Below are positions 6,089 through 31,380 of a DNA stretch of 32,000 nucleotides, piece by piece (within the stretch, counting starts at the first letter, position 1; each line of letters begins with the position of its first letter). Below the pieces are notes generated by a model. It searched no databases and was not told where the DNA came from. It saw only the letters and a program-made list of their open reading frames with translations. Source of the stretch: Geotalea uraniireducens Rf4 (GTDB lineage Bacteria > Desulfobacterota > Desulfuromonadia > Geobacterales > Geobacteraceae); the NCBI RefSeq assembly GCF_000016745.1, contig NC_009483.1, forward strand, positions 3,570,001 to 3,602,000. Direction: 5' to 3'. Both the position numbers and the translations under genes were made by a program.

Positions 6089-7585
6089 TTACCGGCCGGG
6101 GAGGAAGTCGATGGGATACAAGATCGTCGTCTTCGGCACCCCATCTTTGGCGCCAAAGTTGAACTTTTTGACCCTGTCGACAATCTGGGCGGAGAACTCA
6201 GTCGCGTTCATATTGCTAGACTCCACCGCGCAGGCAGAAACCGCCCCGCTCGGTTCGATTGTGATCCGCAGCACCATCTTCCCGCGAAGGGTCGGATTCT
6301 TACGCAATTCGGTATTATAGATACGGTAGAGCGCAGCCTTGTAACGATCGAATAGAATCTGAATCTCTTCGTCGGTTCGGCCCGGACGAGCCCCAGAGCT
6401 AAGTGGCTTGGCCTCCTTCGCCCCCGGGCCTGCGATCGCACTCTTAACTTGCGTAAAGCCAGCGCCCGCGCGGCCAAGTCGAGCATCGTTGCCCCCGCCG
6501 CTGCCGACATTCCGACCCAGTCCGGCGCCATTGCCGATCCCGCCGCTGCCGACGTTCCGACTGACTGCGCCATTGCCGCCACCGCCGCCGGGTCCTCCAC
6601 CCCCCTGCATCGCCACCAGGGAACGGCTCGCCAGGGCCTGCCCCGCCGTTTGGGTAGCAGGGTTGCTCAGACGGGCTTCGGTCCCAAGTCTGGCAACCGG
6701 AGTCTCATCAATAAGATCCTTGAAACTCTCCTTGAACGCCAGGACCCCTGTGTTTTGAGCTTTTTTGGGTGCGGCCGTCTGTTCAGCCGGGGCCGCTTTG
6801 GGGCGTTCCTGTGCCTTGGCCGTTTCCTTTTTCTCTTCTTTTATCCCTTCCGTTTTCGCTTCTTTTTTCTGTTCTTTCGATTTTTTCACCAGCTCCGGCT
6901 TCTTGTGTTCCTGTCTGACCATCATCGCCAGCCGTTCCGGGATCTGGGCAACTACCGGACGGACCGGCACCGGCACGGTCACCAGGCGGATGATAATACT
7001 AAGGAGCAAGCTGAGGAGCATCGCCGTGCGCAGGGCGCGGCGGTAGCGCCGATCGCTCTCGTCATCATGACTCCAAGGCATGACCGGCTGATGCGAAACC
7101 GGGGAAAGCTCACGTTCGATGGCAAATTCTTCCTCGCGCCTCTCGTCGCGAGCATGCGCATTGTCAATTTCATCGTACAGACAGTCGAGTTCTCCGAGGC
7201 ATCGGTTCGCCTGCGCCTTGAGATTCGCCTGTGTTTCCAGCGTGCCGCGGATTTCCTCGTCGAAGCTGGCGATGCGACTCCGCAGCCGTGCGATATGTCC
7301 GGCGGGATCCTTGATCTCCGGCAATCCTTCCCAGAAGAGTTGACCAGCTTCCAGTTCGCCGAGTCGGTCGAGGACGTTGCAGGCACCCCGCAGGGCGTCG
7401 AAACGAAGCCGGTCGTCAGAAGAGGTTTCAAGCTCTGCCTCTACCGCCTGCAACTCGCACTCGAGCTCCGCAAGCCTTCCCCGGACCTGCTCGATCTGAG
7501 CGTTCAGCGGCGCCAATTCCTGCTCTAGTAATGATGTATTCACAGTATACCCGCTAGCCGTGCGCCGCCTTCTGGATGACGGCAA
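6089..7585 (-). CDS. TonB-like energy-transducer with AgmX/PglI-type C-terminal domain and long cytoplasmic coiled-coil N-terminus
   Basis: 498-aa ORF. The first ~190 aa are heptad-rich (RLAELECELQAVEAELE). There is one TM segment (AMLLSLLLSIIIRLVTV), then a K/E-rich and a G-rich linker. The C-terminal ~90 aa (GKMVLRITIEPSGAVSACAV...ILYPIDF) match my recollection of the TonB_C-like AgmX/PglI family. TTG 7585 overlaps the upstream stop by 32 nt; GTG 7543 is an alternative start. Confidence 0.75.
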   Translation of the reverse strand: MPSSRRRRTASGYTVNTSLLEQELAPLNAQIEQVRGRLAELECELQAVEAELETSSDDRLRFDALRGACNVLDRLGELEAGQLFWEGLPEIKDPAGHIARLRSRIASFDEEIRGTLETQANLKAQANRCLGELDCLYDEIDNAHARDERREEEFAIERELSPVSHQPVMPWSHDDESDRRYRRALRTAMLLSLLLSIIIRLVTVPVPVRPVVAQIPERLAMMVRQEHKKPELVKKSKEQKKEAKTEGIKEEKKETAKAQERPKAAPAEQTAAPKKAQNTGVLAFKESFKDLIDETPVARLGTEARLSNPATQTAGQALASRSLVAMQGGGGPGGGGGNGAVSRNVGSGGIGNGAGLGRNVGSGGGNDARLGRAGAGFTQVKSAIAGPGAKEAKPLSSGARPGRTDEEIQILFDRYKAALYRIYNTELRKNPTLRGKMVLRITIEPSGAVSACAVESSNMNATEFSAQIVDRVKKFNFGAKDGVPKTTILYPIDFLPGR

Positions 7586-8054
7586 GTGAAATCTTCCCGT
7601 ATCCAGAAGCCGTGCAGGTTGTCATTATTTTCTTGAGCACTTTGAATGGAATCGTTTTATCAGCCAGGAGAGTGATTTCCCTGGTTTCGGTTGCAGAAAC
7701 CGTGTTGGTGCTTGTCTCGTTGTTCATGCTGCGCTGAATCTGCGCCAGCCGCTCCGTTACTTCATGAACCGTCCCGATGCGGTCATCAAAAAGGTCGGCG
7801 GTCCTCATCACCGGTTCCCCCTGAACCAGTACTGCTTCGGGAGTGACCGAGATCGCCACCGTTCCCCTCGGCTTGGTCTCGACGACGGACTGGGGGAGAG
7901 CGAGCCGCTGTTCCGGCATATCACCGTTGAATGAGTGAAAAAGCAGAAAGAACACCAGAACGGAAAGAACATCCAACATGGGTATCAGATTCAGACTTGC
8001 ATGACGGCGTTTGTTATTACGCTCCATCCGTTTCATACGTCTGCTTTCTCTCAT
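7554..8054 (-). CDS. exbD: ExbD/TolR family biopolymer transport protein (paralog 2)
   Basis: 166 aa. Basic N-terminus plus a single TM (SLNLIPMLDVLSVLVFFLL), then a periplasmic domain. ATG 8054 overlaps the upstream TGA (ATGA at 8051-8054). The 327-aa ORF in the track is an over-extension. Confidence 0.85.
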   Translation of the reverse strand: MRESRRMKRMERNNKRRHASLNLIPMLDVLSVLVFFLLFHSFNGDMPEQRLALPQSVVETKPRGTVAISVTPEAVLVQGEPVMRTADLFDDRIGTVHEVTERLAQIQRSMNNETSTNTVSATETREITLLADKTIPFKVLKKIMTTCTASGYGKISLAVIQKAAHG

Positions 8055-8551
8055 GGCGCGTCTCCTATGGATATTTTCGGGAAGAGAGCGACTTTCTCGA
8101 CCTCTCTGCTCCCTTCTGCCCGCACTCCGGCGCCGCGAACCGTATCCATGACCTGGATAAGATGATCGTATTCCACCTTCGGCTCCATCAGAACTGTCGC
8201 GTCTTCCTTCTCCGGATACCGGGCTTTCAGACGAAGGAGGATTTCGGACAGTTTCTTGAGATCGTATGCACCGTCTTTCTTGGGAATCGCGGCCTCCACG
8301 GACCTCCCGTTGGCAATTTCCAGTCCCGAGTTGCGGACAATCACCTCGATGGCAAAATTCGGCCTGTTGGAAACAGATCCGCCGGCGCTGGTAGGGACAC
8401 TCAAGTCCATGATGGTAATACTCGTAAAGACGGCAGTGATGAGCAGAAAAACCACCAGAACGGTAAAAACATCCATCATCGGTGTCAGGTTCAGGAGCTC
8501 CATGATATCCGTCTCGAGTGACTCTTTCTTTCTCCATTTACGTCTGGCCAT
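8051..8551 (-). CDS. exbD: ExbD/TolR family biopolymer transport protein (paralog 1)
   Basis: 166 aa. LLNLTPMMDVFTVLVVFLL TM motif. AGGAG lies 6 nt before ATG 8551, and the gene starts 12 nt after the exbB stop. Confidence 0.85.
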   Translation of the reverse strand: MARRKWRKKESLETDIMELLNLTPMMDVFTVLVVFLLITAVFTSITIMDLSVPTSAGGSVSNRPNFAIEVIVRNSGLEIANGRSVEAAIPKKDGAYDLKKLSEILLRLKARYPEKEDATVLMEPKVEYDHLIQVMDTVRGAGVRAEGSREVEKVALFPKISIGDAP

Positions 8552-8563
8552 GATCGGCTCCTG

Positions 8564-9202
8564 TCAGTATTGGCGCTTCGTGAAAGTCGAGATAGTGTTC
8601 AGCGCCTTTACCGACACCATCTCGAGGCTGTTCACAATCTGCCCCGTGGTTGTCGTCAGGCGGGCATGGAGCAGCAGAAGCGGGATCGCGGTCATCAGAC
8701 CGAACGCCGTGCAGTTCATGGCCTCCGAAATGCTGGCCGCGAGCAGGGCGGCCTTTTCAGCGGGGCTCGCATTGGCGACCGCGGCGAAGGCCGTGATAAG
8801 ACCCATAATAGTGCCGAGCAGTCCGAACAGTGTGGCGATATTCGAGAGCAGCGCCAGGTAAGGTGTCCGCTTTTCCAGTTGAGGAACTATCTCCATCATG
8901 CTCTCTTCCATGGCGATTTCGATGTCTTCCCGCCGTCTGACCGCCCCCTGGCGCGCCAACCCCATCGCCAGCATCTGCGAGAGGGCCGATTTGTCCTCGT
9001 TGACCATTTCCCTGGCCTTATCGAAATCCCCCTCGACCAGCACCGGATGCACCTCGTCCCATATCCTGCTGTTTTCCGCCTTAACGCGCTTCAGATGAAT
9101 CCAGCGCTCGACCGCAATGGCGATGCCGACCGCAAGCACGAGTAGAATAGGGAACATGAAGAACCCGCCCATCTGAAAAAAACTTACTATACCGTACATC
9201 AT
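8564..9202 (-). CDS. exbB: MotA/TolQ/ExbB proton-channel family protein
   Basis: 212 aa with three hydrophobic segments and the conserved C-terminal core (LLSNIATLFGLLGTIMGLI...EAMNCTAFGLMTAIPLLL). GGAGG lies 5 nt before ATG 9202. Confidence 0.9.
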   Translation of the reverse strand: MMYGIVSFFQMGGFFMFPILLVLAVGIAIAVERWIHLKRVKAENSRIWDEVHPVLVEGDFDKAREMVNEDKSALSQMLAMGLARQGAVRRREDIEIAMEESMMEIVPQLEKRTPYLALLSNIATLFGLLGTIMGLITAFAAVANASPAEKAALLAASISEAMNCTAFGLMTAIPLLLLHARLTTTTGQIVNSLEMVSVKALNTISTFTKRQY

Positions 9203-9292
9203 CTGCCTCCTTCACTGATTGACCCTCTTGGGTCGTATGATCCGCAGAATGCGGTGGTTTGATTCTACTTTGTCAGATTATCGAAACCACGA

Positions 9293-9385
9293 CTGTAACC
9301 CCTCCTGTCCTCCCCTTAATTAAGGGGAGGAACGCGTTAAAGGAGCTCCCCCTCTTAAGATAAGAGGGGGGAGGGGGGAGTTATG
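9293..9385. repeat. REP-like double-hairpin intergenic element, copy A
   Basis: ctgtaacccctcctgtcc, then the perfect palindrome CCTCCCCTTAATTAAGGGGAGG (9309-9330), then CCCCCTCTTA-aga-TAAGAGGGGG (9348-9370), then ggggggagttatg. Related copies lie at 16317-16404 and 21695-21811. Confidence 0.85.
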
Positions 9386-9407: not shown

Positions 9408-9728
9408 TTAGGAGCCTCCTCCCGGTGCGGAGGTTTTGCTGCCGACGCTTACCTGGTAGAAATCCAGCTCCCGCAAAAAAACGTCCCGATCCACCGGCAG
9501 ATCGTGCTCATTCAACGTTCTGTTCAGGTTCGTCTCTGCGCCCAGCTCGGAACTTTTCCAAGGAACGATAAAAAGCGACATTGGTGCTTCATTGTTGCCG
9601 AGAACCGACATACCCTTGACCGTCTTGGCATCTGGGTCACCGGATACAGTGGATGCAGTATCCTCCGCCACAACCATGGCGGCCGAAAGCAGAACCAAAC
9701 AGAGACTGAAAACCAACTTTCGATACAT
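9408..9728 (-). CDS. small secreted hypothetical protein (106 aa)
   Basis: GGAGGA RBS and ATG 9728. Signal peptide MYRKLVFSLCLVLLSAAMVVA. No recognisable domain. It occupies the position between the TPR genes and the motor genes. Confidence 0.7.
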   Translation of the reverse strand: MYRKLVFSLCLVLLSAAMVVAEDTASTVSGDPDAKTVKGMSVLGNNEAPMSLFIVPWKSSELGAETNLNRTLNEHDLPVDRDVFLRELDFYQVSVGSKTSAPGGGS

Positions 9729-9761: not shown

Positions 9762-10544
9762 TTAGTGCACGGACAATCCGTTCCCCATACCGGCTGATGC
9801 CGTTGGCCTGCGGGTCTGCAAATCAGCAAGCCATAACTTCACCTGCTGGTCCTTGGGCATCGCTTGGCCATAGATCTCATAATGTTCAACGGCACAAGCC
9901 AAATCTTTCAGATACAGGTCGCAAAGGATTGCGAGATTTTTGTGTATCGGATGATATTCGGGAAAAGCAGCGAGCGATTTTTCATAAATCAGCCGGCTTT
10001 CGGCAAAACGCCCGGCTTTACGCAACATCAGTCCGTATTCATTGCTCGCCACCGGATGCACGGGAATCAATTCCAGGGCTTTTTTCAGATGCTGCTCGGC
10101 CTGTTCCGGCTTGTTTATCTGTCTGTAAGCAATCGCGAGATTGATGTGGGGCGCGGTCATTTCCGGCGACTGGGCGATCACTTTTTCCAGCAATTCGATC
10201 GCCTTGTCAAACTTCGCTTCCTTGATCATGGCGCTCGCCTGATCAAAGTCTGCACGCAACTGCGCATCCATGCCGGACGGTTCCGTAATCAGAAATCCTT
10301 CACGCCCATCGGTGAAGTGCACCACAGAGGGTCCCGCCGGCAGGGAGGGAGACGGTTCTGCTGCCGCGGCCGCCGCGGCGGGCGTGGGTTCAGCCGGCTC
10401 CACCTTGGCCTTGCCCGCGGTGGCGCATCCTACGAGCAGCGAGAGGCCTATCGCCAACAGCAGGTAACCGGCAATCGTTGCCATGCAGGAACAAGTCCCC
10501 TGCTCTCTTTCCCTCGTTGCATCATTTTTTGGCGCGTTTTCCAT
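9762..10544 (-). CDS. TPR-repeat lipoprotein
   Basis: The track ORF (331 aa) is over-extended into the upstream gene. Plausible starts are ATG 10544 (AAGGGGA 6 nt upstream, 23-nt overlap with the upstream gene) or ATG 10484. The latter gives MATIAGYLLLAIGLSLLVGC, a canonical lipobox. TPR-like helices follow (AKFDKAIELLEKVIAQSPEM..., AEQHLKKALELIPVHP...). Confidence 0.75.
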   Translation of the reverse strand: MENAPKNDATREREQGTCSCMATIAGYLLLAIGLSLLVGCATAGKAKVEPAEPTPAAAAAAAEPSPSLPAGPSVVHFTDGREGFLITEPSGMDAQLRADFDQASAMIKEAKFDKAIELLEKVIAQSPEMTAPHINLAIAYRQINKPEQAEQHLKKALELIPVHPVASNEYGLMLRKAGRFAESRLIYEKSLAAFPEYHPIHKNLAILCDLYLKDLACAVEHYEIYGQAMPKDQQVKLWLADLQTRRPTASAGMGNGLSVH

Positions 10545-13500
10545 GTTTTTTCCCCTTGGCCCGCGGCGAAACCGCTGCGGCCTGTTTGGAGGTTGCCTTC
10601 TTCTGTGGCACTGCTTCCGTCGGTTTTTCCCCCTGAGCTGCAGGAGAAGGGTCTGCAGCAGGCGCCTCCACCCTGACAGCCGGTGCAGCAGGTGCAGCAG
10701 GTGCAGCCTGCGGCGCCGGCGGTGCCTGCCTTTCAATCTCAAACGAGTAGGTTTCAAGCGAGGCGACGATTTCCGTGGGAACTTCCGGCTTGTCGTAGCG
10801 GGCGGGCACGAGCCTGGCCAGTCTTTCCAGGCTCCTGTCGATCCAGGGGTTGTAGATACCCATGGAGATCAGTTCGAGATTCTTCTCGTGGATCTGGATG
10901 GCCTTTTCCTCGAAGGGATACGCCTGTTCCTCGATGGCCAGTTCGTACTCTTGCGTTTCCTGGGCATTCAGGCCGTCCGGACGCTCGGACTCCGTCAGGG
11001 CTTTGCTGAAGTGTGCGTAAATCTCCGCAAGATAGAACGTCGCCGCGGCCGTGACCTCACCGACTTCATACTCCACGAGTTTATTGAATGCCTGGGTTGT
11101 CACCTTCATCAACTCTTTCTTTTTTCGCAGGTTGGCTTCGAAGGGTTTTACGAGCCGGACTTCTGTGAACCGGTCATAGGTCTGCTCGGCAAACACCAGC
11201 GCGGCCTTCCCTCCCAGGTATCGGGTCCGCGGGGTACGCGCCTGCCCGGCCGCTGCATCGATCGCAACGATCTCATTAAGCTCGTCCAGATAATTTTTCT
11301 GATCGTTCTCCGCCTTAAGGATTTCAGCGATCTTGTTGCGCATTTCCAGATTAACCTCGACCGGTTGCGGGAATGAGCCGACAAATCGGCGGTATACTGC
11401 GAGGGCCTGCTTGCTGTTCCCCGTCTGCTGATGCAGTTCCGCCGCAAGCATGAGAGCCCCTCTCCTCACCTCCTCATCCTTGAATTCCCTCTCTACGCGT
11501 TCATATTCATCAGCCGCGAGGGAAAGCTTCCCGTCTTCCTTGTAGACATAGGCAATCTTCCTGGTGACTTCCGGCTGCAGCTGATGGCCGGGGAAGAGAT
11601 CCCGAAATCCCACCAGGACAGTAGCCGCCATTTTCCAGTCCTTGAGCTGGATCAGGGCGGCAGCGGCATCGTACTCGGCATTAACCCGGATCTTCGATGT
11701 GGAAGCCATGCGGCCAACACGCAGGAAATGGTCTGCAGCGGCCCGATAATCCTTGAGGGCATTGGCTTGCTCCCCCTGCTTGTAAATCGATGCAGCAAGA
11801 TTGTCCATGAAGCTTGCCCGGCTTTTGTCTTCTGCGGGAAGCAGAGCCAGGACCTTCACATAGGCGGCCTCGCCCTCGGCATAGCGCTTGAGGTCGTAAC
11901 AGGAATGGCCGACGACGATCCAGGCCGACTTCAGGACCTCCTGGTCTGCACCCGGGAAGACCTCGATGAGCTTGCGCGCGGCAGCGAGCCCCTGCTCGTA
12001 ATCCTTCATGTCGTACAGGTCGTCCGCGGCCGCCCCAAGGACGATCGCGGCCTTCTCGTGTTTCGGGTAGGTCTCTGCAAATTTGAGCGAACTGCGCACG
12101 GTCTCGCGCTTGACTTTGTCTTTCTCCTCTGGCACAGCGGTGCGTAGCTGTTCCCGATAGGCATAAATGGCGGCATAGCCGGCAGCGGACGACTTTTCGT
12201 GGCTCGGATAGCCGTAGGCCGTCTTTTCATATTCCAGCGCAGCCCTGGCGAAGGAGCGGTTTTCAAGCAGCAGGTCGGCCAGTTGGTAATTTATCGCCGG
12301 CGATTCGGCATCCTTCGGGAAGGAGACCAGGAACTCCTCGTACCAGTGCATTGCCTCCTGGAAGTTCTCCCCCTTTTCCTTGGCGTGCTCCGGATCCTGG
12401 TAAAGCGAGTGATAGTGATGGGCGAGGTCGGTGAAGTTGGTCTTCAGAAAACCGAGGACCTCGGGACGCGCGCCCGGATCGAAATGTTTCCAGTATTCGG
12501 CCTTCAGGCCGTAATTCCTGGCAAACTGCTTCTTTGCATCGATAACGACGCTGGGGAAGCCTCCGGCCATCTGGATTTCGATGACGCGCATGTGGAACTG
12601 CGGAGAAACCAGGTGGAAGGGGTTGCGGGTGACGAAGGCGTTGTAAGCGGCCGCGGCATCGCTGTACCGGCGTTTATCGAAATAGAATTCACCGAGATTG
12701 CTGTAGATGCGGTCCTCATAGCTGCGCTTGCCGTTGGTATCAAAGTATTCCATCACGGAGTCGGCACCGCGAAGGTACGAGAAGCTCTGGCTGATGACCC
12801 GGAAGGCGTCGTCTACACGCTTGCGTTCAAGATCGTCTTTCGTCTGGGCAAAGTCGTATCCGGTGGCAACCTTCCGATCCAGCAGCGCGATGAATCGCTG
12901 CAGCCCCTCCTCGTAGAGCTCCTGCTTGTAGAAGGTCCAGCCGAGCTTGTACAGGGCGAGCTCGTAGTATGGGGAACCGGCACCCATGTCCACGATGCTC
13001 TTGTACGCTGCTTCCGCATCGAGATACCGCTTGCGGGTAAAGAAGAATTCGGCCCGCCGGAACCGCACCTCGTCGATGTAGGGTGAATGCGGGAAGTCGC
13101 GGACCAGCCGGTCCATGACCCCCATGGCATCCTCCGTCTGCCCCAGTTCCTCGTAGGCGCGGGACATCTGGTACAGAACCTGGTCGTTGCCCGGGTACAG
13201 CGGGTATTTGTCCAGCAGCTTTTTGTAGAGCGCGATCGCCTCCCGAGTCCCTGCTCTTTCGAGATCTTCGGTACCGGCTTCGGGAAGCCCGCCCGATTTT
13301 CCTCCCTTGGCGGTAAGCTGCGGACTCTGGGTCGTTCTTTTTTCAAAATCCGCCTGCGACTCGGTCAGGGGAGATTGCGGATCGGTCCCCCTCACCCGGC
13401 CAATCCATCTCTCTATCTCTCTCCCGAAGGGAGAGAGAACTCCTTGCCCTCTCCCTCTGGGAGAGGGATTGGGTGAGGGTAGGGCCACCCTCTCCCACGC

Positions 13501-13848
13501 CGGGGAGAGGGTTTCTCCCCTCGCCCCTTGTGGACCCACAGGGCCTGAAGGAGAAGGGGCGGGGGTGAAGGGTTGGGTTGCCGCAAGGGCAGTCAGGTAA
13601 CCGTATTCCCTCTCGATCTTCAGGTCGGCAAGACGACGGATCGCCGCGGGAGTCAGCGCCGATTCGGGCGTTTCTTTCAGAAAGCGCTGGTAACTCTCCA
13701 TAGCTTTCTCGAGCCCGCCTTCGATCGCCTCTTCCTTGATCTCGATCTGCATGTTCCGCAACTGGGCAATCGTCTCCCTGCTACCGCCCGTTTGACAGGC
13801 AGCAAGGATCGCCGGAATTGCAAAGACTAAAAGTCGGATTCGCTTCAT
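10522..13848 (-). CDS. large TPR-repeat lipoprotein (1108 aa), GltD/AgmU-like scaffold candidate
   Basis: Lipoprotein signal MKRIRLLVFAIPAILAAC. More than 15 TPR/YbgF-BamD-like helical repeats run through the body. A/P-rich C-terminal tail. ATG 13848 overlaps the upstream TGA (ATGA). Confidence 0.85.
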   Translation of the reverse strand: MKRIRLLVFAIPAILAACQTGGSRETIAQLRNMQIEIKEEAIEGGLEKAMESYQRFLKETPESALTPAAIRRLADLKIEREYGYLTALAATQPFTPAPSPSGPVGPQGARGETLSPAWERVALPSPNPSPRGRGQGVLSPFGREIERWIGRVRGTDPQSPLTESQADFEKRTTQSPQLTAKGGKSGGLPEAGTEDLERAGTREAIALYKKLLDKYPLYPGNDQVLYQMSRAYEELGQTEDAMGVMDRLVRDFPHSPYIDEVRFRRAEFFFTRKRYLDAEAAYKSIVDMGAGSPYYELALYKLGWTFYKQELYEEGLQRFIALLDRKVATGYDFAQTKDDLERKRVDDAFRVISQSFSYLRGADSVMEYFDTNGKRSYEDRIYSNLGEFYFDKRRYSDAAAAYNAFVTRNPFHLVSPQFHMRVIEIQMAGGFPSVVIDAKKQFARNYGLKAEYWKHFDPGARPEVLGFLKTNFTDLAHHYHSLYQDPEHAKEKGENFQEAMHWYEEFLVSFPKDAESPAINYQLADLLLENRSFARAALEYEKTAYGYPSHEKSSAAGYAAIYAYREQLRTAVPEEKDKVKRETVRSSLKFAETYPKHEKAAIVLGAAADDLYDMKDYEQGLAAARKLIEVFPGADQEVLKSAWIVVGHSCYDLKRYAEGEAAYVKVLALLPAEDKSRASFMDNLAASIYKQGEQANALKDYRAAADHFLRVGRMASTSKIRVNAEYDAAAALIQLKDWKMAATVLVGFRDLFPGHQLQPEVTRKIAYVYKEDGKLSLAADEYERVEREFKDEEVRRGALMLAAELHQQTGNSKQALAVYRRFVGSFPQPVEVNLEMRNKIAEILKAENDQKNYLDELNEIVAIDAAAGQARTPRTRYLGGKAALVFAEQTYDRFTEVRLVKPFEANLRKKKELMKVTTQAFNKLVEYEVGEVTAAATFYLAEIYAHFSKALTESERPDGLNAQETQEYELAIEEQAYPFEEKAIQIHEKNLELISMGIYNPWIDRSLERLARLVPARYDKPEVPTEIVASLETYSFEIERQAPPAPQAAPAAPAAPAVRVEAPAADPSPAAQGEKPTEAVPQKKATSKQAAAVSPRAKGKKHGKRAKK
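13387..13520. repeat. cluster of GC-rich perfect palindromes embedded in frame in the 1108-aa CDS
   Basis: Three inner hairpins: TCTCTCTCCC-gaa-GGGAGAGAGA (13416-13438), CCCTCTCCC-tct-GGGAGAGGG (13447-13467), and CCCTCTCCC-acgcc-GGGGAGAGGG (13488-13511). An outer inverted repeat CCCTCACCC/GGGTGAGGG (13389-13397/13471-13479) encloses the first two. The region encodes residues ~110-155 (...LPSPNPSPRGRGQGVLSPFGREIERW...). Confidence 0.8.
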
Positions 13849-21694: not shown

Positions 21695-21811
21695 CATAAC
21701 CCCTCCTGTCCTCTTTAGGCCCTTTGGGTCCCCTTAAACTAAGGGGAGGAACGTTATTCAACCGACAGAGCTTCTCCCCCTCTTAAGTTAAGAGGGGGGG
21801 GGGGAGTTATG
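21695..21811. repeat. REP-like double-hairpin intergenic element, copy C (first hairpin interrupted)
   Basis: cataacccctcctgtcct, then CCTC[tttaggccctttgggt]CCCCTTAaacTAAGGGGAGG, then CCCCCTCTTAAgTTAAGAGGGGG, then ggggggagttatg. Lies between the 2853-aa stop and the 1706-aa start. Confidence 0.8.
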
Positions 21812-21831
21812 TCAGCAAATGTTGTTTCACA

Positions 21832-24800: not shown

Positions 24801-27800
24801 CCGCGCCGGGGTCCGCAACAGCCGCCCCGTTCAGCGTAGTGCTGTTGGCCACATAGGTCGTATTGGGCGGGATCAGATCCCGCAGCGTCCCCCCCGTCGC
24901 GTTCTCGGTGCCGATGTTTTTCACCGTGATGGTGTAGGCCAGGGTGTCCCCCGCCATGACGGTGGCAGTGCCTGAGGTAATATCCTGCACCGTCTTCAGG
25001 ACCTGGAAAGTCGGCGCCGACGTGATGAGCGTCCGGGTCGGATTGGCGGTCCCCGTGACGGACGGATCGTCGCTTAACTGCGTCGGCAACAGGGGGGAGC
25101 CGATCTGCGCCTGGTTCAGGACCAGGGAACCGCTGTTGATCACCGGCGCCAGGGTGACCTGGAACTGAATGACCAGCGTGTCGCCCGTCTCCCCCTGGGG
25201 AGCGACGCTCAGATTGCCGATACTCACCAGACCCGTGCCTTTGGTCCCGCCCGTCGCCGAGGTCAGTGAGGTATTCGCGCCTGCCGGAACGGTGATGAGC
25301 TTCAGGGTCCCCGGCACGAACATGGGGGGTGTATTCAGCTTGTCGAGATCGTCGGTCAACGTGAAGTTCGACGCTGGCAGCGAGCCGACGTTCTGAATCC
25401 TGAGCGTGTATTGCAGCGTCTCACCGGGCTTGGCGTTGGCGCCGGACTGACCGGTGGTCACGTTCTGGACGGTCTTGGTAAAGGTCAGCAATGGCGCCTG
25501 GGTGGTAAGAGTGAAGGCGTCCTGATTATCCAGTACGCCGAGTGTGCCGTTGGTCAACGGGAAGGTCGAGGTCTGGATGTTGCCCGGTGCGGTGACGGCC
25601 GGATCGGCGCTCAACCACTGGGTGGCGCCCGCAACGTTGGTCAGGGTAATACCCCCGGCCGTATAGGGATCGAGCGAGGCGCTGTAGGTGACGATCAGTC
25701 GATCCGTCGGCGGAATTGCTGTCGCGGACGACTTCATCGCAACCGTGAAGGTACAGGCAGGCGCACCCGCAAAGCTGACGGTAAAGTCCGTGCCGCTTGA
25801 GAGCGGTGCGGAGACAGGCGTAACCCCGTCGGCCTGGTAGATCCGTGCCGTGACATTGGTCGGCGCGGAGCCGCACATGCTCCCCGGAGATGGAGTGGTC
25901 ACCTTCGGAAGGAAGTCCGCGAGGGTCGTCTGCCACGCCGTGCTGCCGCCGGTGTTCTGCACATTCAAGGTAAAGGTGCCGGGTGCAAGGGCAGTCATCG
26001 TGCTCGGACCGCTCTTCTGCATGGTCAGAGCGGGGCCGACGATGGTGATCGCGGGGCTTGCGCCCGGAGCGCCATTTGCCTGCGTGCTCGCAGTGTTATC
26101 GATACTGTCGTAGGTGTAGGTCGCTGTGTTCTGGAACTGCTTCCCCATGGCATTGTTGGCGGTATTGCCAAGCACCACCGTGACATTGACGACGATCTGC
26201 TGGCCGGCAGGGATGTCGATGCCGTTTGTGGTGTCCTGAATCACCAGATTCGTGGCAGTGCCGGTATTCACCGGCGTAAAGGCCGGGCCGGACACCCGTT
26301 GGACGCTGACAAAACTCATGTCCACGCCGGTAACGGAAGAGCTCAGATTGTCCAGGATGCGCACGTCGTACATGGCCGTGGCCTGCGGCACAGCCGGAAC
26401 CGTGATGCTATAGGTGAAGGGCTGGCCGATGGCGGCCTTCGTTACTAAAGCCTGCTTCGACAGCGCCGTCGCCGCTGCGGTGGTCAGCTGGACAGTGGCT
26501 GTGCTGGTTGGACCGTAAACCTGTCGATTGGTAACTTGGCTTCCGGCCGGCACGTCCTGGCTGTCGAAGGAGTAGTACGTCGTGACCTGCGCCTGGTTGT
26601 TCAGAGTCATCCCTGCGCCGAGACCGGTGTCGGCCTTGACCTGATAGATCACCTGCAGGGTCTGGCCAGGCGGGATCGCGTAGAGATCGGGGGAACCGGA
26701 AACATCGAAATTCCAGGTCGCGACACCGGTGGCTGAACCATACGCCGGGGAAAGCCCGGGGAGCGTCGCCGTCACCGCATTGGTCGCGGTGTTGACCAGG
26801 GTGATGCTGGTGGTGGTGACACCTGTCTGGCGCAACCCCACCGGCAGCGCATCGGTCAAGACAGTGTTATAGGCAGGCGCTGCGCCGCTGTTGGCAATCT
26901 TGACGGTATACGTAATGAGCTCGCCAGCGGTGATGACGGTGCCGCCGTTCGCCGTTGCCGCGCTTTTGGACACGTTCAGCATCGGCTGCCAGAGATTGAT
27001 GGTCGCGCCGGCGGTCTTCGGCGTCGCGGCAATACCGTTAATGGCGTAGCTGAGCGTGGCATTGTTGGTCAGCTGCTGCGCCGTGGGCGACTGTGCCAGC
27101 GTGTTCTTCACCACGTGTGCGCGGTATTGAATGATTAAGGTATTGTTAGCGGGGTTGTTGTCGACGGCGTTGGTGATGTTACCCAGGGTCCAGGTCAGGG
27201 TGCCGGTAGCGCCTGGCGCAGGCTGGGAGGCCACGGTGTAAGTAAAGTTGCTGCTACCGGTCGCAGGGGTGATGCTCACCACACTGTCGAGGGCCAGCCC
27301 CGTGGGGAGTTGGTCGGTGACCACCACATTCTGGGTCACCCCTTCGCGCAGGGTCAGAGCGAGACTGTAAACGACCGTGTCGCCGATGCGCAGGGTCGAG
27401 TCGGTGCCGGTGCTTGGTGCGATAGTCCAGGAGTCGGAGACCACCGATTTGGCGAGGGTGGTCGGATCGAGCGAGGTGACAGAGGCAGAGGCCGGACCGG
27501 TGCAATAGTTGTTCTGCGAGGTCACATTCGGGCAACCGGCGCCGGTGCGCTCCCCCGTGATTGCGCCGGAGAGCGAGCTCCAGTCCACATAGACGCTGTT
27601 GGTGATCGGCGCGCCGCTGGTTTCCACCACACCCACGTTGTAGGTCAGCATCAGTGTCCCGCCAGCCGGGATGTCCAGACTGGTGTCGCCATTCTGGCTG
27701 CCCCAATCCACGGCGCTGCTGGCCAGGACCCTGGGAGTCGTTATAAACCCGCTGACCGGAACGCCGTTGATCTGCGCTGTGGCCGAGCCAGGGACCAGCG

Positions 27801-30393
27801 ATACGTTGGACGGCAGGAAGTCCATGACGTCGGCATCGTATGCTTCGGAGCCACCATCGTTATTAATGGTGACCGTATAGCGGAGAACGTCACCTGGTGC
27901 AGCAGGAGAGGTTATGGATTTGCCCGCCGGCGAGGCGTAGCTCACCGTCTTTGCAGCGGTCAGGTGCGGCTCGACCACCGTCATGCCGGAGGTGGTTGCC
28001 GCACCGCCGGTCGTTTGGGTCAAGCTGTCGCCGTTTATCTTGTCATAGGTATATGACGCGCTGTTGGTAAACGTCACGCCACTGTGGTTGGTGGTGGTGT
28101 TCTGCAGGGCCACCGTCACCTGGATGACCGCCTGGCCCCCCGCGGGGATATCGATACCGGTGTTCAGGTCCTGGAGAATGATATTGGTAGCAGTGCCGGT
28201 ATTGGTCAGGTTCCAGTTGCCGCCGGATATGACCTGCGCACCCACAAAGGTCATGTTGGCCGCGGAGAGTCCCAGATTGTCCAGGATCCTCACGTCGTAC
28301 AAGGGCACGTTGGTGGGGGTCGCAGGCACCTTAATGAGGTAACGGAACTGCTGACCAATCGTCGCACTGCTCTGGGTATTCGCCTTCGATAGCGGTCCGG
28401 GCGTCTGGATCGTCACCGGGGTAGGATCCCCTCCCGAACCGAGCAGTACCGTGCCGTTGATGTACGGATCATCACTGGAGCCGGACCACGTTTGGCCGTT
28501 CGAGTCGGTGCCGGTGAGGCTCGCCTGATTGGAGATAAGAGTGCCGTCCGTGAGGTTCGAGTCCAGCGTGGCATCGAAGTCGATCTGAATCTGCGAAGTG
28601 GTATTTGCTCCCCCTGGCAGATTCAGGCCGGTGATGGTAATGGAGCCTGGAGTCCCGCCGCCGGGTTGAGTGACGCTTGTTGAACCGCCCGCCGGGGTGA
28701 TAGTAACGTTGGAGATCGAACCCAATGCCGCAGGCAAGTTGTCGGTGATTGTGATGCCATTGAGCGCTGGCCATGTAAAGTTCTGGAGCAGGAGGGTGTA
28801 GTGCAGCCTGTCACCCGGAAAGGCCGTGGCGGCCGGGTAGGTGCCGGTGGTCAGGTCCCGGACCGTCTTCTGAAAGTAATAGCCGGACAGCGCCGCTGTA
28901 ACCTGGTAGACGTCCTGGAAATCCAATGTGCCCGGCGTGCCGTCGGTGATCGTCCTGTCGTACTCACGACGGCCGGCATGGCTGCTGTTCGCGCTGAACC
29001 ACCTGGTAGCGCCGGCAATATTGGTAAGCGTCGTTCCGGATGCGACGCCAGTGCTGTCGAGCTGTGCCTGGTAGGTGATGATCAGACGCTGCGTGGGGGC
29101 GATTTTGGTCGTATCAAGCATGGTCAGGGTAAGCTGGCTGGCTGAACTGCTGCCGCCGTTCCAGGTGAGCGTGAAGTCGGTGCCATTTACCAGCGGACCC
29201 GAGACCGGGGTGACGCCGTCAGACGCAAAGATCTGAGCGGTGACTGTGGGCAAGGGCGAGTAAGTGCTCATACCGGCCGGGAGATGGTCGGTGATCGTGG
29301 CGTTCCACGCATCGCTGCCCCCGGTGTTCTGGACATTGAGCGTGTATTTCACCTGCGAATCCACGTTGACGGTTGTTGCCGAGCCCGTCTTGGTGAGCGT
29401 AAGATTGGGCTCGACGACGGTCATCGGCAGCGTCGTGCCGGGCCATGCCTGGAGATCGGCTATGTCCGTCGAATTGATCGTTTTGTTGAACCACATATTG
29501 GCAGTGTTGCTGAACTGCGTCCCTGCCAGGTTCACGCTCGTCGGGTTGTTATCGAGGACAACGGTGAGGTCGATCTCAACGTTATATCCAGCCGGGAGCG
29601 AAGCCAGAGCCGGATTATATTCATAGGAAAAGACAAGATGCTTGGTAGCATCCGACAGAATGCCGGGGTGATTGGAGAGCCAGGTACTGCTTGCCCCCAG
29701 CGTCAGTGGTGCGCCTCCGTTCAACGGCGTTCTGGCGCCGGAACCCGGGTTCACCAGGTAGGCCGCGTTGCTCACATAGGTAAGAGCCGCACCTGTTGTG
29801 GTGAGATCGTCGGGGATAACGACATTCGCGATATTGGTGTCGTCGGCGTTGGCCATATACTGGAAGGTGCCCGTGGCATCCAGTTTGCCCAGGAGCGGCA
29901 CGGTGATCGTGTAGGAAAAGGGCACACCGATGGCAGCAGTAGTCTGGGTCGGTGGGTTCTTCTTACTGACTGCATCCACCGGCACCATAAAGGCCTGGCA
30001 GGAAGGACTGATGTTGTTGAACCCACCGGGCGCCCAATAGATCCAAAAGTCCGATTGGGTCGGGTCGTTACACGACATGTTGCCGTAGTAGTAAACGTTG
30101 GTGAAAGCGATGTAGAAGGATTGCTGTTGGGGAAAATTAAAATTGATGTTGGTGATTGGGAAACCGCCCATGGACTGCGGAAAGTTCTTTACCGTGCAGT
30201 TCATGTCAATCCCGAACGTGGAGGCAGATTGAATGGCCGCTAAGATAGCGGGGTTATAACCGTCAACGACTCCGCCAAACTGGGAGCAGAAAACGCCCGC
30301 AGCCTGCGCACGCGAGGCCGCACCCAGCACCAGGAGCAGAAGAGCAATGACGATATTGAAGCGAAGTGAGTAAATTTTCATAACGATTCGCAC
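21832..30393 (-). CDS. giant DUF11 ('conserved repeat domain') surface protein / putative adhesin, 2853 aa
   Basis: GTG 30393 has GAGGG 4 nt upstream; ATG 30381 is an alternative. Signal peptide ...IVIALLLLVLGAASRAQA. At least nine DUF11-type signatures (e.g. GDTLAYTITVKNIGTENATGGTLRDLIP, GDTLQYTINVINSGATPATGVVLTDAIP, GELITYTVKIANSGAAPAYNTVLTDALP). Two SdrD-B/Cna-B-like modules (GSVWQDGNYDNSLDSGE..., GKVFDDANANGYPDPGE...). Confidence 0.9.
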   Translation of the reverse strand: MRIVMKIYSLRFNIVIALLLLVLGAASRAQAAGVFCSQFGGVVDGYNPAILAAIQSASTFGIDMNCTVKNFPQSMGGFPITNINFNFPQQQSFYIAFTNVYYYGNMSCNDPTQSDFWIYWAPGGFNNISPSCQAFMVPVDAVSKKNPPTQTTAAIGVPFSYTITVPLLGKLDATGTFQYMANADDTNIANVVIPDDLTTTGAALTYVSNAAYLVNPGSGARTPLNGGAPLTLGASSTWLSNHPGILSDATKHLVFSYEYNPALASLPAGYNVEIDLTVVLDNNPTSVNLAGTQFSNTANMWFNKTINSTDIADLQAWPGTTLPMTVVEPNLTLTKTGSATTVNVDSQVKYTLNVQNTGGSDAWNATITDHLPAGMSTYSPLPTVTAQIFASDGVTPVSGPLVNGTDFTLTWNGGSSSASQLTLTMLDTTKIAPTQRLIITYQAQLDSTGVASGTTLTNIAGATRWFSANSSHAGRREYDRTITDGTPGTLDFQDVYQVTAALSGYYFQKTVRDLTTGTYPAATAFPGDRLHYTLLLQNFTWPALNGITITDNLPAALGSISNVTITPAGGSTSVTQPGGGTPGSITITGLNLPGGANTTSQIQIDFDATLDSNLTDGTLISNQASLTGTDSNGQTWSGSSDDPYINGTVLLGSGGDPTPVTIQTPGPLSKANTQSSATIGQQFRYLIKVPATPTNVPLYDVRILDNLGLSAANMTFVGAQVISGGNWNLTNTGTATNIILQDLNTGIDIPAGGQAVIQVTVALQNTTTNHSGVTFTNSASYTYDKINGDSLTQTTGGAATTSGMTVVEPHLTAAKTVSYASPAGKSITSPAAPGDVLRYTVTINNDGGSEAYDADVMDFLPSNVSLVPGSATAQINGVPVSGFITTPRVLASSAVDWGSQNGDTSLDIPAGGTLMLTYNVGVVETSGAPITNSVYVDWSSLSGAITGERTGAGCPNVTSQNNYCTGPASASVTSLDPTTLAKSVVSDSWTIAPSTGTDSTLRIGDTVVYSLALTLREGVTQNVVVTDQLPTGLALDSVVSITPATGSSNFTYTVASQPAPGATGTLTWTLGNITNAVDNNPANNTLIIQYRAHVVKNTLAQSPTAQQLTNNATLSYAINGIAATPKTAGATINLWQPMLNVSKSAATANGGTVITAGELITYTVKIANSGAAPAYNTVLTDALPVGLRQTGVTTTSITLVNTATNAVTATLPGLSPAYGSATGVATWNFDVSGSPDLYAIPPGQTLQVIYQVKADTGLGAGMTLNNQAQVTTYYSFDSQDVPAGSQVTNRQVYGPTSTATVQLTTAAATALSKQALVTKAAIGQPFTYSITVPAVPQATAMYDVRILDNLSSSVTGVDMSFVSVQRVSGPAFTPVNTGTATNLVIQDTTNGIDIPAGQQIVVNVTVVLGNTANNAMGKQFQNTATYTYDSIDNTASTQANGAPGASPAITIVGPALTMQKSGPSTMTALAPGTFTLNVQNTGGSTAWQTTLADFLPKVTTPSPGSMCGSAPTNVTARIYQADGVTPVSAPLSSGTDFTVSFAGAPACTFTVAMKSSATAIPPTDRLIVTYSASLDPYTAGGITLTNVAGATQWLSADPAVTAPGNIQTSTFPLTNGTLGVLDNQDAFTLTTQAPLLTFTKTVQNVTTGQSGANAKPGETLQYTLRIQNVGSLPASNFTLTDDLDKLNTPPMFVPGTLKLITVPAGANTSLTSATGGTKGTGLVSIGNLSVAPQGETGDTLVIQFQVTLAPVINSGSLVLNQAQIGSPLLPTQLSDDPSVTGTANPTRTLITSAPTFQVLKTVQDITSGTATVMAGDTLAYTITVKNIGTENATGGTLRDLIPPNTTYVANSTTLNGAAVADPGAGVSALENGLSINSPANPTAGAMPANAGTTTTNVATVTFQVQISRNVVAGTLISNQGFVDGSGAASGPFPEQPSDNPATPVQNDPTTVVVGNLPLVYALKTVQLAGDVNGNGLVDPGDTLQYTINVINSGATPATGVVLTDAIPANTTYVANSVQMNGAAVADPGTGISPLTNGMGVSGGILAAGGTGVVTFKVQVNSGVVTGTIISNQGSVATAQLPPLLTDSDGNPTNGYQPTVIAVGNAQQLSITKSAVVVGGGAALPGSVLEYTVQATNIGTVPATNVVIIDDLTPLLNQATYVANSATMNGSGSGVSFTSPVVSANYGANYGASYGTLSPGGSVVVRFRVKLNATLATGSVVTNTAQASWNSPSQTANASTSVTVGGMPGSGSLNGSVWQDGNYDNSLDSGELTSANWAVDLYENGGLVGTVNTDADGSYHFSGVTPNAGTTIQYELRFRAPGAGANTAMLGWCNSPFTNGMQRISSIIVGAGGVLQDLNLPLTPNGVVYNSIMRTPIAGATLIMVQASSKTPLAGSCFNDPAQQGQVTQSSGYYKFDLNFSDPSCPSGGEYLIQVTPPASGYMVGVSKLVPPTSSSTTASFSVPACPGTPADAVPGTPNYCEAQALSLAPAVSVPAGTGTAHYLHLTLDNVQPGYSQIYNNHVAIDPTLNTAIAITKTAALVNVTRGQLVPYTITLNNTLGVALRNLSVVDTFPLGFKYVAGSARMDGQKIEPVMNMRQLIWSISQLSSNTNHTITFLMIVGSGVSEGEYVNRAQVMDNATDSVASGVATATVRVTPDPDFDCTDIIGKVFDDANANGYPDPGEKGVPGARVVTPRGLIATTDEFGRFHITCGVVPDEDRGSNFILKLDDRTLPTGYRVTSENPLVERATRGKMLRFNFGATIHHVVSLDIADGVFEPKSTKLRMQWQPRIGLLLKELRKAPSVLRLSYLADTENRGVAEDRLKALKKEITGKWDGGYPLTIETEVFWRRGSPP

Positions 30394-30424: not shown

Positions 30425-30606
30425 AAAAATAAATAAGCGCTCTCACCTTCCGAAGATGAGAGCGCCTTGTTGTCGGTAAAAACCGGGTACCAAGAGGCAA
30501 ACTCATCTCTTCGGCAACCCGGCTATCCTTTTAGGTCAGGACCCGTGGCTTTGCGTCACCAGATTGCTCTGGTTTTGCCCGTTCGGAGAACGTTTTGAAG
30601 CTTAGA
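30425..30606 (-). promoter_or_regulatory. GEMM-I (cyclic-di-GMP-I class) riboswitch with intrinsic terminator, copy 1, directly upstream of the giant DUF11 gene
   Basis: Minus-strand RNA reads ...CGGGCAAAACCAGAGCAAUCUGGUGACGCAAAGCCACGGGUCC...AGCCGGGUUGCCGAAGAG. This matches the GEMM-I core as I recall it from Vc2 (GGGCAAACC...GACGCAAAGCC...GCGGGGUUACCGA), including a GNRA-capped P1a. It is followed by hairpin GCGCUCUCAUCUUCGGAAGGUGAGAGCGC (30437-30465) and a U-rich tract. Confidence 0.8.
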
Positions 30607-30624
30607 ACTGTTGACTGCGTAAAC

Positions 30625-30671: not shown

Positions 30672-30777
30672 CACTTGCCCCGTAAGGATGAGACTTACCG
30701 CTTTGTTCTATTCAATTCTGCCAGCAGAAATAACTTCTATTCGCCAGCATCATGCTTTGTTGGCAAAAGTCGCGAAA

Positions 30778-30942
30778 TTATTTCAGGCGTTCCTGCTTCA
30801 TCACATCGGACACCCGGTAATCGGCAACATTGATCGTCACCTGGAGACACGGCGCGGAGAGTAGGCCAATCTCTTTCATGCACTCGGTCAGCTTCCGCTT
30901 CCACTCCGGGTCAAGGCCCGGTTTTCGTATGATCTTCTCCAT
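30778..30942 (-). CDS. small hypothetical protein (54 aa) downstream of tandem GEMM-I riboswitches
   Basis: ATG 30942 with GAGG 7 nt upstream. Product is MEKIIRKPGLDPEWKRKLTECMKEIGLLSAPCLQVTINVADYRVSDVMKQERLK. The longer 89-aa track ORF runs into the riboswitch terminator. No homology recognised, so coding status is uncertain. Confidence 0.45.
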   Translation of the reverse strand: MEKIIRKPGLDPEWKRKLTECMKEIGLLSAPCLQVTINVADYRVSDVMKQERLK

Positions 30943-30963
30943 GGCTATACCTCGTAGACCGAT

Positions 30964-31146
30964 AAAAAAAGGAGCACTCTCATCTTCCGAAGATAAGAGT
31001 GCTCCTTTGTGTCGGTAACATACCGGGTGCCAGGATGCATATCTCATCTCTTCGGCAACCCGGCTATCCTTTAGGTCAGGACCCGTGGCTTTGCGTCACC
31101 AGATTACTCTGGTTTTGCCCGTTCGGAGAACGTTTTGAAGCTTAGA
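30964..31146 (-). promoter_or_regulatory. GEMM-I riboswitch with intrinsic terminator, copy 2
   Basis: Nearly identical to copy 1 across the aptamer (about 31043-31132). Terminator GGAGCACUCUUAUCUUCGGAAGAUGAGAGUGCUCC (30971-31005) plus U7. Confidence 0.8.
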
Positions 31147-31207
31147 TCAAATCGATGAACACCTCGCTCCTGCGCTTTTGAACAAAAAAATTACCTGCAC
31201 ATTCAAT

Positions 31208-31380
31208 AAAAAAAGGAGCACTCTTATCTTCCGAAGATAAGAGCGCTCCTTGTGTCGGTAATATACCGGGTACCAAGATGCATATCTCATCTCTTCGGCA
31301 ACCCGGCTATCCTTTTAGGTCAGGACCCGTAGCTTTGCGTCACCAGATTACTCTGGTTTTGCCCGTTCGGAGAACGTTTT
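31208..31380 (-). promoter_or_regulatory. GEMM-I riboswitch with intrinsic terminator, copy 3
   Basis: Same aptamer (about 31286-31376), with one visible core change (GCAAAGCUACGGG vs GCAAAGCCACGGG). Terminator stem at 31215-31249 plus U-run. Confidence 0.75.

Follow-up and report, generated by a model that had tools for sequence, protein, structure and literature searches.

A predicted adhesin-handling system of the Agl-Glt family behind serial c-di-GMP-I riboswitches in Geotalea uraniireducens Rf4

What does the Agl-Glt core, the set of motor and envelope proteins known from Myxococcus, do in bacteria that do not glide? The question is raised by a stretch of 32,000 nucleotides (nt) from Geotalea uraniireducens Rf4, referred to here as the window; all coordinates are relative to the window unless another locus is named. 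In the window, homologues of the seven core genes are encoded together with a giant secreted adhesin (protein A) and a large outer-membrane protein (protein B), behind three riboswitch aptamers of the cyclic di-GMP (c-di-GMP) class I. We lean towards the reading that a proton-driven motor of the TolQR type, working via a TonB-like protein and connectors made of tetratricopeptide repeats (TPR), acts on B to export, expose or load A. The genes of the unit are listed below, with protein lengths in amino acids (aa).

30778–30942, minus strand: 54-aa open reading frame (ORF) between aptamers 2 and 3, starting MEKIIRKPGLDPEWKRKL...
21832–30393, minus strand: A, 2853-aa secreted fibrillar adhesin with a signal peptide and CLIPPER/DUF11 and isopeptide domains
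16424–21544, minus strand: B, 1706-aa outer-membrane protein with a signal peptide, OmpA-like domains and a predicted large barrel
15738–16268/16328, minus strand: C, 176-aa periplasmic protein, signal peptide followed by a coiled coil and a beta-rich region
13845–15734, minus strand: D, 629 aa, GltC homologue (Gura_3077), TPR and a helical C-terminal half
10522–13848, minus strand: E, 1108-aa TPR lipoprotein, GltD homologue (Gura_3076), lipoprotein-like N-terminus
9762–10484, minus strand: F, 240-aa TPR lipoprotein, GltE homologue (Gura_3075), lipoprotein-like N-terminus
9408–9728, minus strand: G, 106-aa secreted protein (Gura_3074), kept in all complete loci
8564–9202, minus strand: H, TolQ/ExbB-type channel, AglR homologue (Gura_3073), PF01618 (MotA_ExbB), 88 bits
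8051–8551, minus strand: I, ExbD/TolR paralogue 1, AglQ homologue (Gura_3072), PF02472, 66.7 bits
7554–8054, minus strand: J, ExbD/TolR paralogue 2, AglS homologue (Gura_3071), PF02472, 58.9 bits
6089–7585, minus strand: K, GltG homologue (Gura_3070), NF033768 match, single transmembrane helix

The ORF check of the window showed that the eleven ORFs A to K all lie on the minus strand, from 30393 down to 6089, with 4-nt gene overlaps between I and J (8051–8054) and between D and E (13845–13848). These coordinates agree with the first-pass annotation, which was made from the letters of the DNA and also described large gaps, each holding a palindrome resembling repetitive extragenic palindromic (REP) elements. 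Its count of eleven genes was revised. The 54-aa ORF is located between aptamers 2 and 3 and the unit therefore contains twelve genes, which are best read as one transcription unit. In 15 related metagenomic loci, the product of this small ORF showed 78–100% protein identity, and the ORF was placed between the aptamer array and A. It has no signal peptide and no Pfam match, and might act as a regulator or, in the cytoplasm, work with the machine.

The motor expected from the first pass, with one ExbB-like channel, two ExbD paralogues and an AgmX/PglI-type TonB-like protein, was recovered with the domain models PF01618, PF02472 and NF033768. The transmembrane Asp is kept in both ExbD paralogues, within MMDVF in I and MLDVL in J. 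Protein K consists of a cytoplasmic coiled-coil N-terminal domain of ~180 aa, a transmembrane helix at residues ~184–215 (hydropathy), a low-complexity linker rich in Lys, Glu, Pro and Gly, and a TonB-like C-terminal domain. K scored 64.3 bits with the AgmX/PglI C-terminal model NF033768 (cut-off 40) and was below both TonB cut-offs, with 19.4 vs 24.6 bits for TonB_C (PF03544) and 23.5 vs 27.1 bits for TIGR01352. The C-terminus of K is thus not that of an ordinary TonB, as had been predicted. The GltG model aligned to residues 226–492 of K only.

Table S3 of Luciano et al. (2011) lists Gura_3070–3073 and Gura_3075–3077 as homologues of GltG, AglS, AglQ, AglR, GltE, GltD and GltC, respectively (PMC3169522). 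The myxococcal counterparts in that table are MXAN_6862, MXAN_6861 and MXAN_6860 for H, I and J, MXAN_4867 for K, and MXAN_4870, MXAN_4869 and MXAN_2541 for the set of D, E and F (PMC3169522). For Geobacter, Gammaproteobacteria, Betaproteobacteria and Fibrobacter, the same study described a "core complex" of seven genes, which it treated as a functional unit whose function is unknown and which does not suffice for gliding; the Group A genes were found in Myxococcales and Bdellovibrionales only (PMC3169522). The seven-gene core itself is therefore not new, since it was already listed at this locus in 2011, and the statement of the first-pass annotation that this core occurs in non-gliding bacteria was correct. 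The assignment of the TPR proteins to GltC, GltD and GltE types follows the published phylogenomics of Table S3, and the TPR content of D, E and F was confirmed by domain models, whereas the NCBIfam equivalog model for GltE was not reached. Proteins C and G had no family match in Pfam or NCBIfam.

To place the core in its genomic setting, GltC (protein D) was used as the anchor. The GltC homologue family contained 715 full-length representatives at E<1e-30. The locus search profile was built from a subset of 13 GltC sequences, an alignment of 41 sequences being too diverse, and 80 GltC-anchored loci with 10-kb flanks were collected from species-representative genomes, onto which all window proteins were mapped. 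The gene order C-D-E-F-G-H-I-J-K was kept in all complete loci. Wherever the sequence extended that far, C immediately preceded the GltC homologue, and C and G are part of the conserved set.

Protein A adjoins the core, together with B where the flank reaches, in 56 of the 80 loci and in three different gene orders. In the first arrangement (44 loci), B is directly upstream on the same strand, followed further upstream by A where the flank reaches; these loci were labelled Geobacteraceae, Desulfuromonadales, Desulfobacterales, Desulfosarcinaceae, Deferrisomatales, Nitrospirota and others. The second arrangement, with an A homologue directly after K, was found in 8 loci from Steroidobacter, Chromatiales and other gamma-type metagenome-assembled genomes (MAGs). 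In the third (4 loci), A is divergent and upstream. Most of the remaining 24 loci did not have enough flank to judge. The partnership spans Desulfuromonadota, Desulfobacterota, Nitrospirota and part of the Gammaproteobacteria, and the co-occurrence of the motor core with the two giant genes, anticipated in the first pass, was thus observed and is strong. That the genes stay adjacent although their order differs in three ways speaks for a functional link and not for a frozen operon that was merely inherited. Judged from these neighbourhoods, the partnership of the core with A and B is frequent, old, able to survive rearrangement, and not obligatory. Four loci (L009, L016, L030 and L045) were labelled Arthrobacter, Actinomycetota, Parcubacteria or Chloroflexota despite carrying a diderm operon, and these are most likely mis-binned MAG contigs. 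A Zixibacteria locus with a match to B (L082) was set aside, as its translation did not give the query and there is no core there.

The same neighbourhoods bear on a quite unlikely explanation, in which A and B form a self-sufficient adhesin and anchor and the core serves independently as an integrity or division system like Tol-Pal. The core alone is present in some Gammaproteobacteria, the best NCBIfam match of H is TolQ, and E scored 115 bits with the YbgF/CpoB TPR model TIGR02795 (cut-off 90). The cluster was also probably acquired horizontally, and linkage may persist without function. However, the adjacency is retained through three gene orders and several phyla, and the score of E is the sum of four TPR stretches in 1108 aa, which is not a CpoB-like architecture. 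The equivalog cut-offs for TolQ and TolR were not reached (70.6 vs 221 and 40.4 vs 127 bits in NCBIfam), and no TolA, TolB or Pal was found among the window ORFs. With TonB-ExbB-ExbD and Tol-Pal the locus shares a proton-driven MotA_ExbB and ExbD stator, an anchored transducer, a long linker and a TonB-like C-terminal fold. Unlike those systems, it has an AgmX/PglI C-terminus, two different ExbDs and three large interposed TPR proteins. In agreement with the first-pass annotation, the Pfam and NCBIfam scans of the window ORFs also gave no plug-containing TonB-dependent receptor.

The putative outer-membrane partner of the motor is B. Two OmpA-like peptidoglycan-binding domains of B were detected by models, and the ~610 C-terminal residues were predicted by AlphaFold2 to contain ~34 long beta-strands, with a predicted local distance difference test score (pLDDT) of 69. 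Residues 400–545, the supposed third OmpA domain, and residues 540–1000 matched no Pfam family. The earlier description of B as three OmpA domains plus a barrel was therefore retained for the OmpA domains and the predicted beta-stranded C-terminus and corrected to two domains detected by models. B was a single ORF of ~1700 aa in 12 of the 13 loci checked. In the gamma-type arrangement, B was split into an OmpA gene (571–698 aa) and a barrel gene (853–980 aa), at 7783–12943 of L081 and 16–4390 of L084. One gammaproteobacterial MAG carries, in two adjoining loci, C to K, A (3451 aa) and B as two genes (698 and 980 aa), and a second contig carries the same two-gene split. In a Nitrospirota MAG (L028, 1–9408), A and B form one in-frame ORF from which the stop of A, the spacer and most of the signal peptide of B are gone. 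This fusion, if genuine, places the C-terminus of A beside the periplasmic N-terminus of B.

The best Foldseek matches of the B barrel were LptD, MtrB and TonB-dependent transporters (BtuB, Cir, FhuA and others), with template modelling (TM) scores of 0.2–0.3. B was not assigned to any of these because the matches are only generic. The transporter matches and the TonB-like energiser would suit TonB-dependent uptake, with B as a very large TonB-gated import channel and A as the capturing protein for a particulate or polymeric substrate. We consider this very unlikely. LptD and MtrB scored as well as the transporters, B has no Plug or TonB_dep_Rec match in Pfam, and TonB_C was not above its cut-off. 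Furthermore, no inner-membrane transporter or binding protein is encoded, and uptake systems contain nothing equivalent to the TPR shaft proteins.

Protein A was confirmed as a giant adhesin of the DUF11 type, as first annotated. It matched DUF11/CLIPPER (PF01345) with 198 bits in 7 stretches, TIGR01451 with 287 bits and the isopeptide model TIGR04226 with 192 bits in 6 stretches. PF24595 and PF24346 were also matched, and A is made up of a long run of CLIPPER/DUF11, DUF7619, DUF7507 and RrgB-type isopeptide domains. CLIPPER was established by crystallography as an isopeptide-stabilised stalk domain of fibrillar adhesins (PMC12617251). The last 334 residues were modelled by AlphaFold2 as a CLIPPER domain, a CnaB-like domain and a terminal beta-alpha-beta-alpha-beta domain of ~95 residues; the top Foldseek match of this C-terminal model in the PDB was 9IFR (CLIPPER), with a TMt of 0.74.

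The two ends of A are far better conserved than the middle. The N-terminal domain, with four Cys, showed 66–98% identity in relatives, including one gammaproteobacterial MAG, and had no solved relative by profile search and no Pfam family. The tail has 34 invariant columns across 14 sequences. The tail was also considered as a degenerate OmpA-like domain, which was dropped, as hhalign against the first OmpA domain of B gave 0.1% probability. No C-terminal sorting domain of the type IX secretion system (T9SS), CHU_C, LPXTG or type I secretion signal was detected in A by the Pfam and NCBIfam scans. That no known signal for sorting or secretion is present in A itself speaks against a self-sufficient A and B working apart from the core.

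How the unit would be switched on is suggested by its leader. The first-pass annotation placed the unit behind one cyclic-dinucleotide riboswitch; the riboswitch is real and of the c-di-GMP-I class, and there are three aptamers instead of one.

31293–31372, minus strand: aptamer 1, c-di-GMP-I, Rfam RF03167, 64 bits, above gathering
31213–31251: intrinsic terminator after aptamer 1, 18 pairs
31050–31128, minus strand: aptamer 2, c-di-GMP-I, Rfam RF03167, 65 bits
30968–31008: intrinsic terminator after aptamer 2, 19 pairs
30509–30588, minus strand: aptamer 3, c-di-GMP-I, Rfam RF03167, 65 bits, directly before gene A
30435–30467: terminator after aptamer 3, 15 pairs

RF03167 belongs to clan CL00126, and other members of the clan also gave matches, with lower scores. 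Many Geobacter GEMM-Ib RNAs sense cyclic GMP-AMP (cGAMP). The equivalents of G20, A47 and C92 (Vc2 numbering, mapped by us from the Rfam model alignment) are G, A and C, respectively, and are invariant in 36 aptamer copies. Since G20 versus A20 separates c-di-GMP sensing from cGAMP sensing by GEMM-Ib (PMC6140456) and every copy has G at this position, the predicted ligand is c-di-GMP, and cGAMP was rejected in spite of the Geobacter precedent.

Tandem aptamers are not confined to this genome. A metagenome scan anchored on the N-terminus of A returned 31 loci, and Rfam was run on 20 of these. In 12 of the 20 relatives, 2–5 tandem aptamers were found ahead of the small ORF and A. Loci L085–L098 and L107 carry 2–5 serial units of aptamer plus terminator ~1–1.4 kb upstream of the A homologue. 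The number of aptamers and their placement relative to the small ORF vary among close relatives (3+0, 3+1, 2+1), and L093 has three extra aptamers on the opposite strand (77–151, 992–1068 and 1295–1371). In Steroidobacter (L061), one c-di-GMP-I aptamer precedes C and another precedes A (9143–9234 and 19176–19272). This is an independent instance of c-di-GMP control over the core and the adhesin modules, and the presence of an aptamer before each module argues against two unrelated functions. No intrinsic terminator was found downstream of the L061 aptamers; the second is followed by a possible hairpin sequestering the Shine-Dalgarno sequence (CCCUCG...CGAGGG), and control in L061 may, judging from this sequence, be translational.

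In the fold analysis of the G. uraniireducens leader, aptamer and terminator were separate and can coexist. The 3' strand of P1, extended by an invariant linker (CCGAAGAGAUGAG), can pair with the half of the terminator 5' arm that is nearer the loop (CUCAUCUUCGG), and this pairing held in 98.7% of cells over 36 copies. In transcripts ending at the CUCAUCUUCGG arm, the antiterminator was the minimum free energy (MFE) fold, at −51 to −54 kcal/mol, and at this decision length it was better than the fold with P1 enforced by ~11.5 kcal/mol. When P1 was enforced, the full-length RNA folded the terminator. In Cd1, a transcriptional OFF switch of the C. difficile flagellar operon, aptamer and terminator can likewise coexist, and they compete with an antiterminator in which the 3' strand of P1 pairs with the 5' arm of the terminator, while the Geobacter pilM riboswitch is an ON switch (PMC9262584). 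Unlike Cd1, the present leader has three complete units in series, with up to five in relatives, and a conserved decoy strand.

The modelled folds make it fairly likely that the expression platforms follow an OFF logic like that of Cd1, opposite to the pilM ON switch. Ligand binding would favour termination, and c-di-GMP probably represses the operon. The ON-switch reading was rejected, because no convincing antiterminator pairing was found for the strand that the ligand would free. Riboswitches of the OFF type fit an apparatus made at low c-di-GMP better than a classical biofilm adhesin. If the OFF call is right, passage through three successive leaky attenuators would restrict expression to low c-di-GMP.

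A low-c-di-GMP regulon, such as the flagellar operon behind Cd1, would also suit surface translocation, in which the motor moves or cycles B and A laterally in the outer membrane, as Agl-Glt moves platforms loaded with CglB, for slow surface movement or for active detachment and re-attachment on mineral particles. In evolution, the core is directly related to the gliding and Nfs machines; an isopeptide stalk is suited to bearing load, and the 180-aa cytoplasmic coiled coil of K could couple to a component of the cytoplasm. We nevertheless regard translocation as unlikely. The OmpA-like peptidoglycan anchors of B argue for a fixed position and not a travelling one. Furthermore, no family match to the Group A genes (gltA, gltB, gltH, gltK, gltF, gltI and gltJ), to CglB or to genes of the MglA/AglZ type was found among the window ORFs in Pfam and NCBIfam.

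These absences also set the locus apart from the Agl-Glt and Agl-Nfs systems of M. xanthus. Alike are the seven core genes (AglR, AglQ, AglS, GltG, GltD, GltE and GltC), which stand here in a single cluster, and the general plan, with a motor in the inner membrane, a shaft across the periplasm, a barrel platform in the outer membrane and an adhesin on the surface. In contrast to the three small barrels of Myxococcus there is one 1706-aa protein with OmpA-like domains plus a predicted barrel, and in contrast to the VWA lipoprotein CglB there is a 2853-aa CLIPPER fibre. K is without the FHA domain of GltG, the match to the GltG model covering the periplasmic part of K only, and the small genes C and G and the riboswitch control are additional.

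Our preferred reading, motor-driven handling of A through B, borrows its geometry from Myxococcus. In an AlphaFold-based model of that machine, GltC docks under the barrels GltA, GltB and GltH and bridges to GltD-GltG, and GltG wraps GltD (PMC11761067). While gene content, homologies, the conserved neighbourhood and the riboswitches with their folds were observed, we infer all protein contacts by analogy with this arrangement, and likewise the topology of A, the direction of regulation and the use of the proton-motive force for A. The sensor would consist of the three serial OFF attenuators, read through at low c-di-GMP only. Proton flow through an H5-I-J stator would be converted into movement of K, whose linker and C-terminal domain would engage E (GltD) with F (GltE). 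D would link E with the side of B that faces the periplasm, like GltC in the Myxococcus model, and C and G would be conserved accessory parts. B would be fixed to the peptidoglycan by its N-terminal OmpA-like domains, its barrel serving as a conduit or seat for A. A would reach the periplasm by Sec and form an isopeptide-stabilised fibre, and the proton flow would lead to pulling or rotation on B, by which A could be threaded, exposed or mechanically loaded at the surface. The conserved tail of A would stay in the periplasm near the N-terminus of B. Deployment of a giant adhesin driven by the proton-motive force, as proposed in the first-pass annotation, is supported as far as sequence analysis goes, and the mechanism given here is our inference. 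Those refuting conditions of the first pass that could be examined by computation all turned out in favour of its reading.

Several results weigh against this reading. The core alone, with no A or B nearby, was found in at least three gammaproteobacterial loci (L074, L075 and L080), where it lies between pcnB-folK-panBC-pgi and other housekeeping genes; A and B are therefore not an obligatory partner. The myxobacterial equivalog cut-offs of NCBIfam were not reached, with 53.7 vs 650 for GltG, 28 vs 450 for GltJ and 20.6 vs 225 for GltE. With a predicted TM-score (pTM) of 0.42, the B model does not establish that there is a single closed barrel. The tail of A had no detectable relative in a profile search of PDB sequences. 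The fusion of A and B was seen in one MAG only, and is either natural or the result of a deletion made in long-read assembly. In the leader, a conserved decoy strand lying nearer to the P1 3' strand pairs with it in 95% of cells and was its MFE partner in shorter and in full-length transcripts; the ON/OFF call therefore depends on a thermodynamic snapshot. It would also be unusual for c-di-GMP to repress an adhesin.

One of the loci without A or B offers a variation on the theme. In the distant locus L078, directly after K, lies a gene (18359–20659) for a 766-aa protein that combines three Big_5 Ig-like domains with DUF5122 beta-propeller repeats. The Myxococcus adhesin CglB also has a beta-propeller. 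The 766-aa protein may be an alternative surface cargo, and the cargo of the core may be exchangeable.

Two further systems present giant adhesins at the outer membrane. In the T9SS and gliding machinery of Bacteroidota, the GldLM motor works with the 36-strand translocon SprA and the adhesin SprB. The likeness lies in a proton-driven ExbBD-like motor, a very large outer-membrane barrel and a giant repetitive adhesin, and it is an analogy only. The proteins described here have no known sequence relation to T9SS components, and A lacks the T9SS C-terminal sorting domain. In the Lap system, LapA, an RTX substrate of type I secretion, is held in the LapE pore and released at low c-di-GMP via LapD and LapG. 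Both systems would place a giant repetitive adhesin in an outer-membrane pore by a terminal retention module, with c-di-GMP deciding on display. They differ in that the control of LapA is post-translational with c-di-GMP as a positive signal, whereas control here would be by transcription attenuation and is predicted to be negative, and in that export would proceed by Sec and a further outer-membrane step and not by type I secretion.

In the literature searched (subscription journals were outside its coverage), no paper was found that joins Glt genes with DUF11/CLIPPER or that deals with the locus tags. The coupling of the core with A and B, the serial riboswitch arrays with the small ORF and the predicted negative control by c-di-GMP thus appear to be unreported there.

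The palindrome CTCCCCCTCTTAAGnTAAGAGGGGG was found as one 40-nt copy in each of the three gaps of more than 90 nt.

9346–9385: copy 1, gap between G and H
16365–16404: copy 2, gap between B and C; L002 has a copy at the same junction
21774–21813: copy 3, gap between A and B

The element, written CTCCCCCTCTTAAGnTAAGAGGGGG(G)n, occupies exactly the three long gaps of the operon and contains no T-run. It was rejected as a conserved operon element, as outside the window it was found only in L002, and on this distribution it is a lineage-specific insertion. It is perhaps an mRNA stabiliser, and could act as a processing or stabilising hairpin that sets the ratio of A : B : C–G : H–K.

The flanks of the unit contain other features. 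A protein of 549 aa with tandem Cache domains (dCache_2/sCache_2) is encoded on the plus strand at 362–2011, near the 3' end of the operon and on the opposite strand, and no output domain was detected in it. A 300-nt direct repeat of 97% identity lies at 2135–2434 and 5038–5337 (plus strand) and covers the start, together with the region upstream of it, of each of two paralogous DUF4172-Fic genes (2213–3337 and 5116–6045), between which is a gene resembling RicinB-lectin/glycosidase genes (3364–4947). On the other side, at ~31650–32000, a 3' tRNA-like fragment was seen by eye (...GGCTTCGAATCCCGTTTCCCGCTCCA on the minus strand), and a plus-strand ORF from 31884 beside it (MTPQNRQRKREQRKPGPFTDRFIKSLKPE...) resembles the N-terminus of a tyrosine integrase. 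ARAGORN reported no tRNA in the window, including no complete tRNA at ~31650–32000, and Pfam gave nothing in the 39 available residues of this ORF. The region may be the edge of an integrated element next to the operon.

The function of the core has been an open question since 2011, and a 2020 preprint on CglB still calls the function of the core complex in non-gliding bacteria unknown. Its partnership with a specific adhesin cargo and an outer-membrane protein is the first concrete candidate for its job. CLIPPER adhesins of these Gram-negative bacteria are not known to carry a sorting signal, and the partnership also offers a possible route by which they reach the surface. With as many as five complete units, the serial arrays lend themselves to the study of how tandem attenuators sharpen the response to a second messenger. 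If the OFF logic holds, the cell would make a giant adhesin when c-di-GMP is low, which is contrary to the usual rule. More tentatively, and as a possibility that we consider doubtful at present, the ancestral function of the Agl-Glt and Nfs family, widespread to this day, may be a hitherto unrecognised outer-membrane path for handling proteins, in which a proton-driven TolQR-type motor, by way of a TonB-like arm of the GltG type and a TPR shaft, would translocate a Sec-exported giant isopeptide adhesin through a dedicated, peptidoglycan-anchored barrel of ~34 strands and then load it mechanically; myxobacterial gliding and spore-coat formation would then be later specialisations, and in Geobacteraceae the path would belong to an exploratory low-c-di-GMP programme set by the serial OFF riboswitches. 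With the partners named here, the ancestral function of the Agl-Glt family becomes directly testable.

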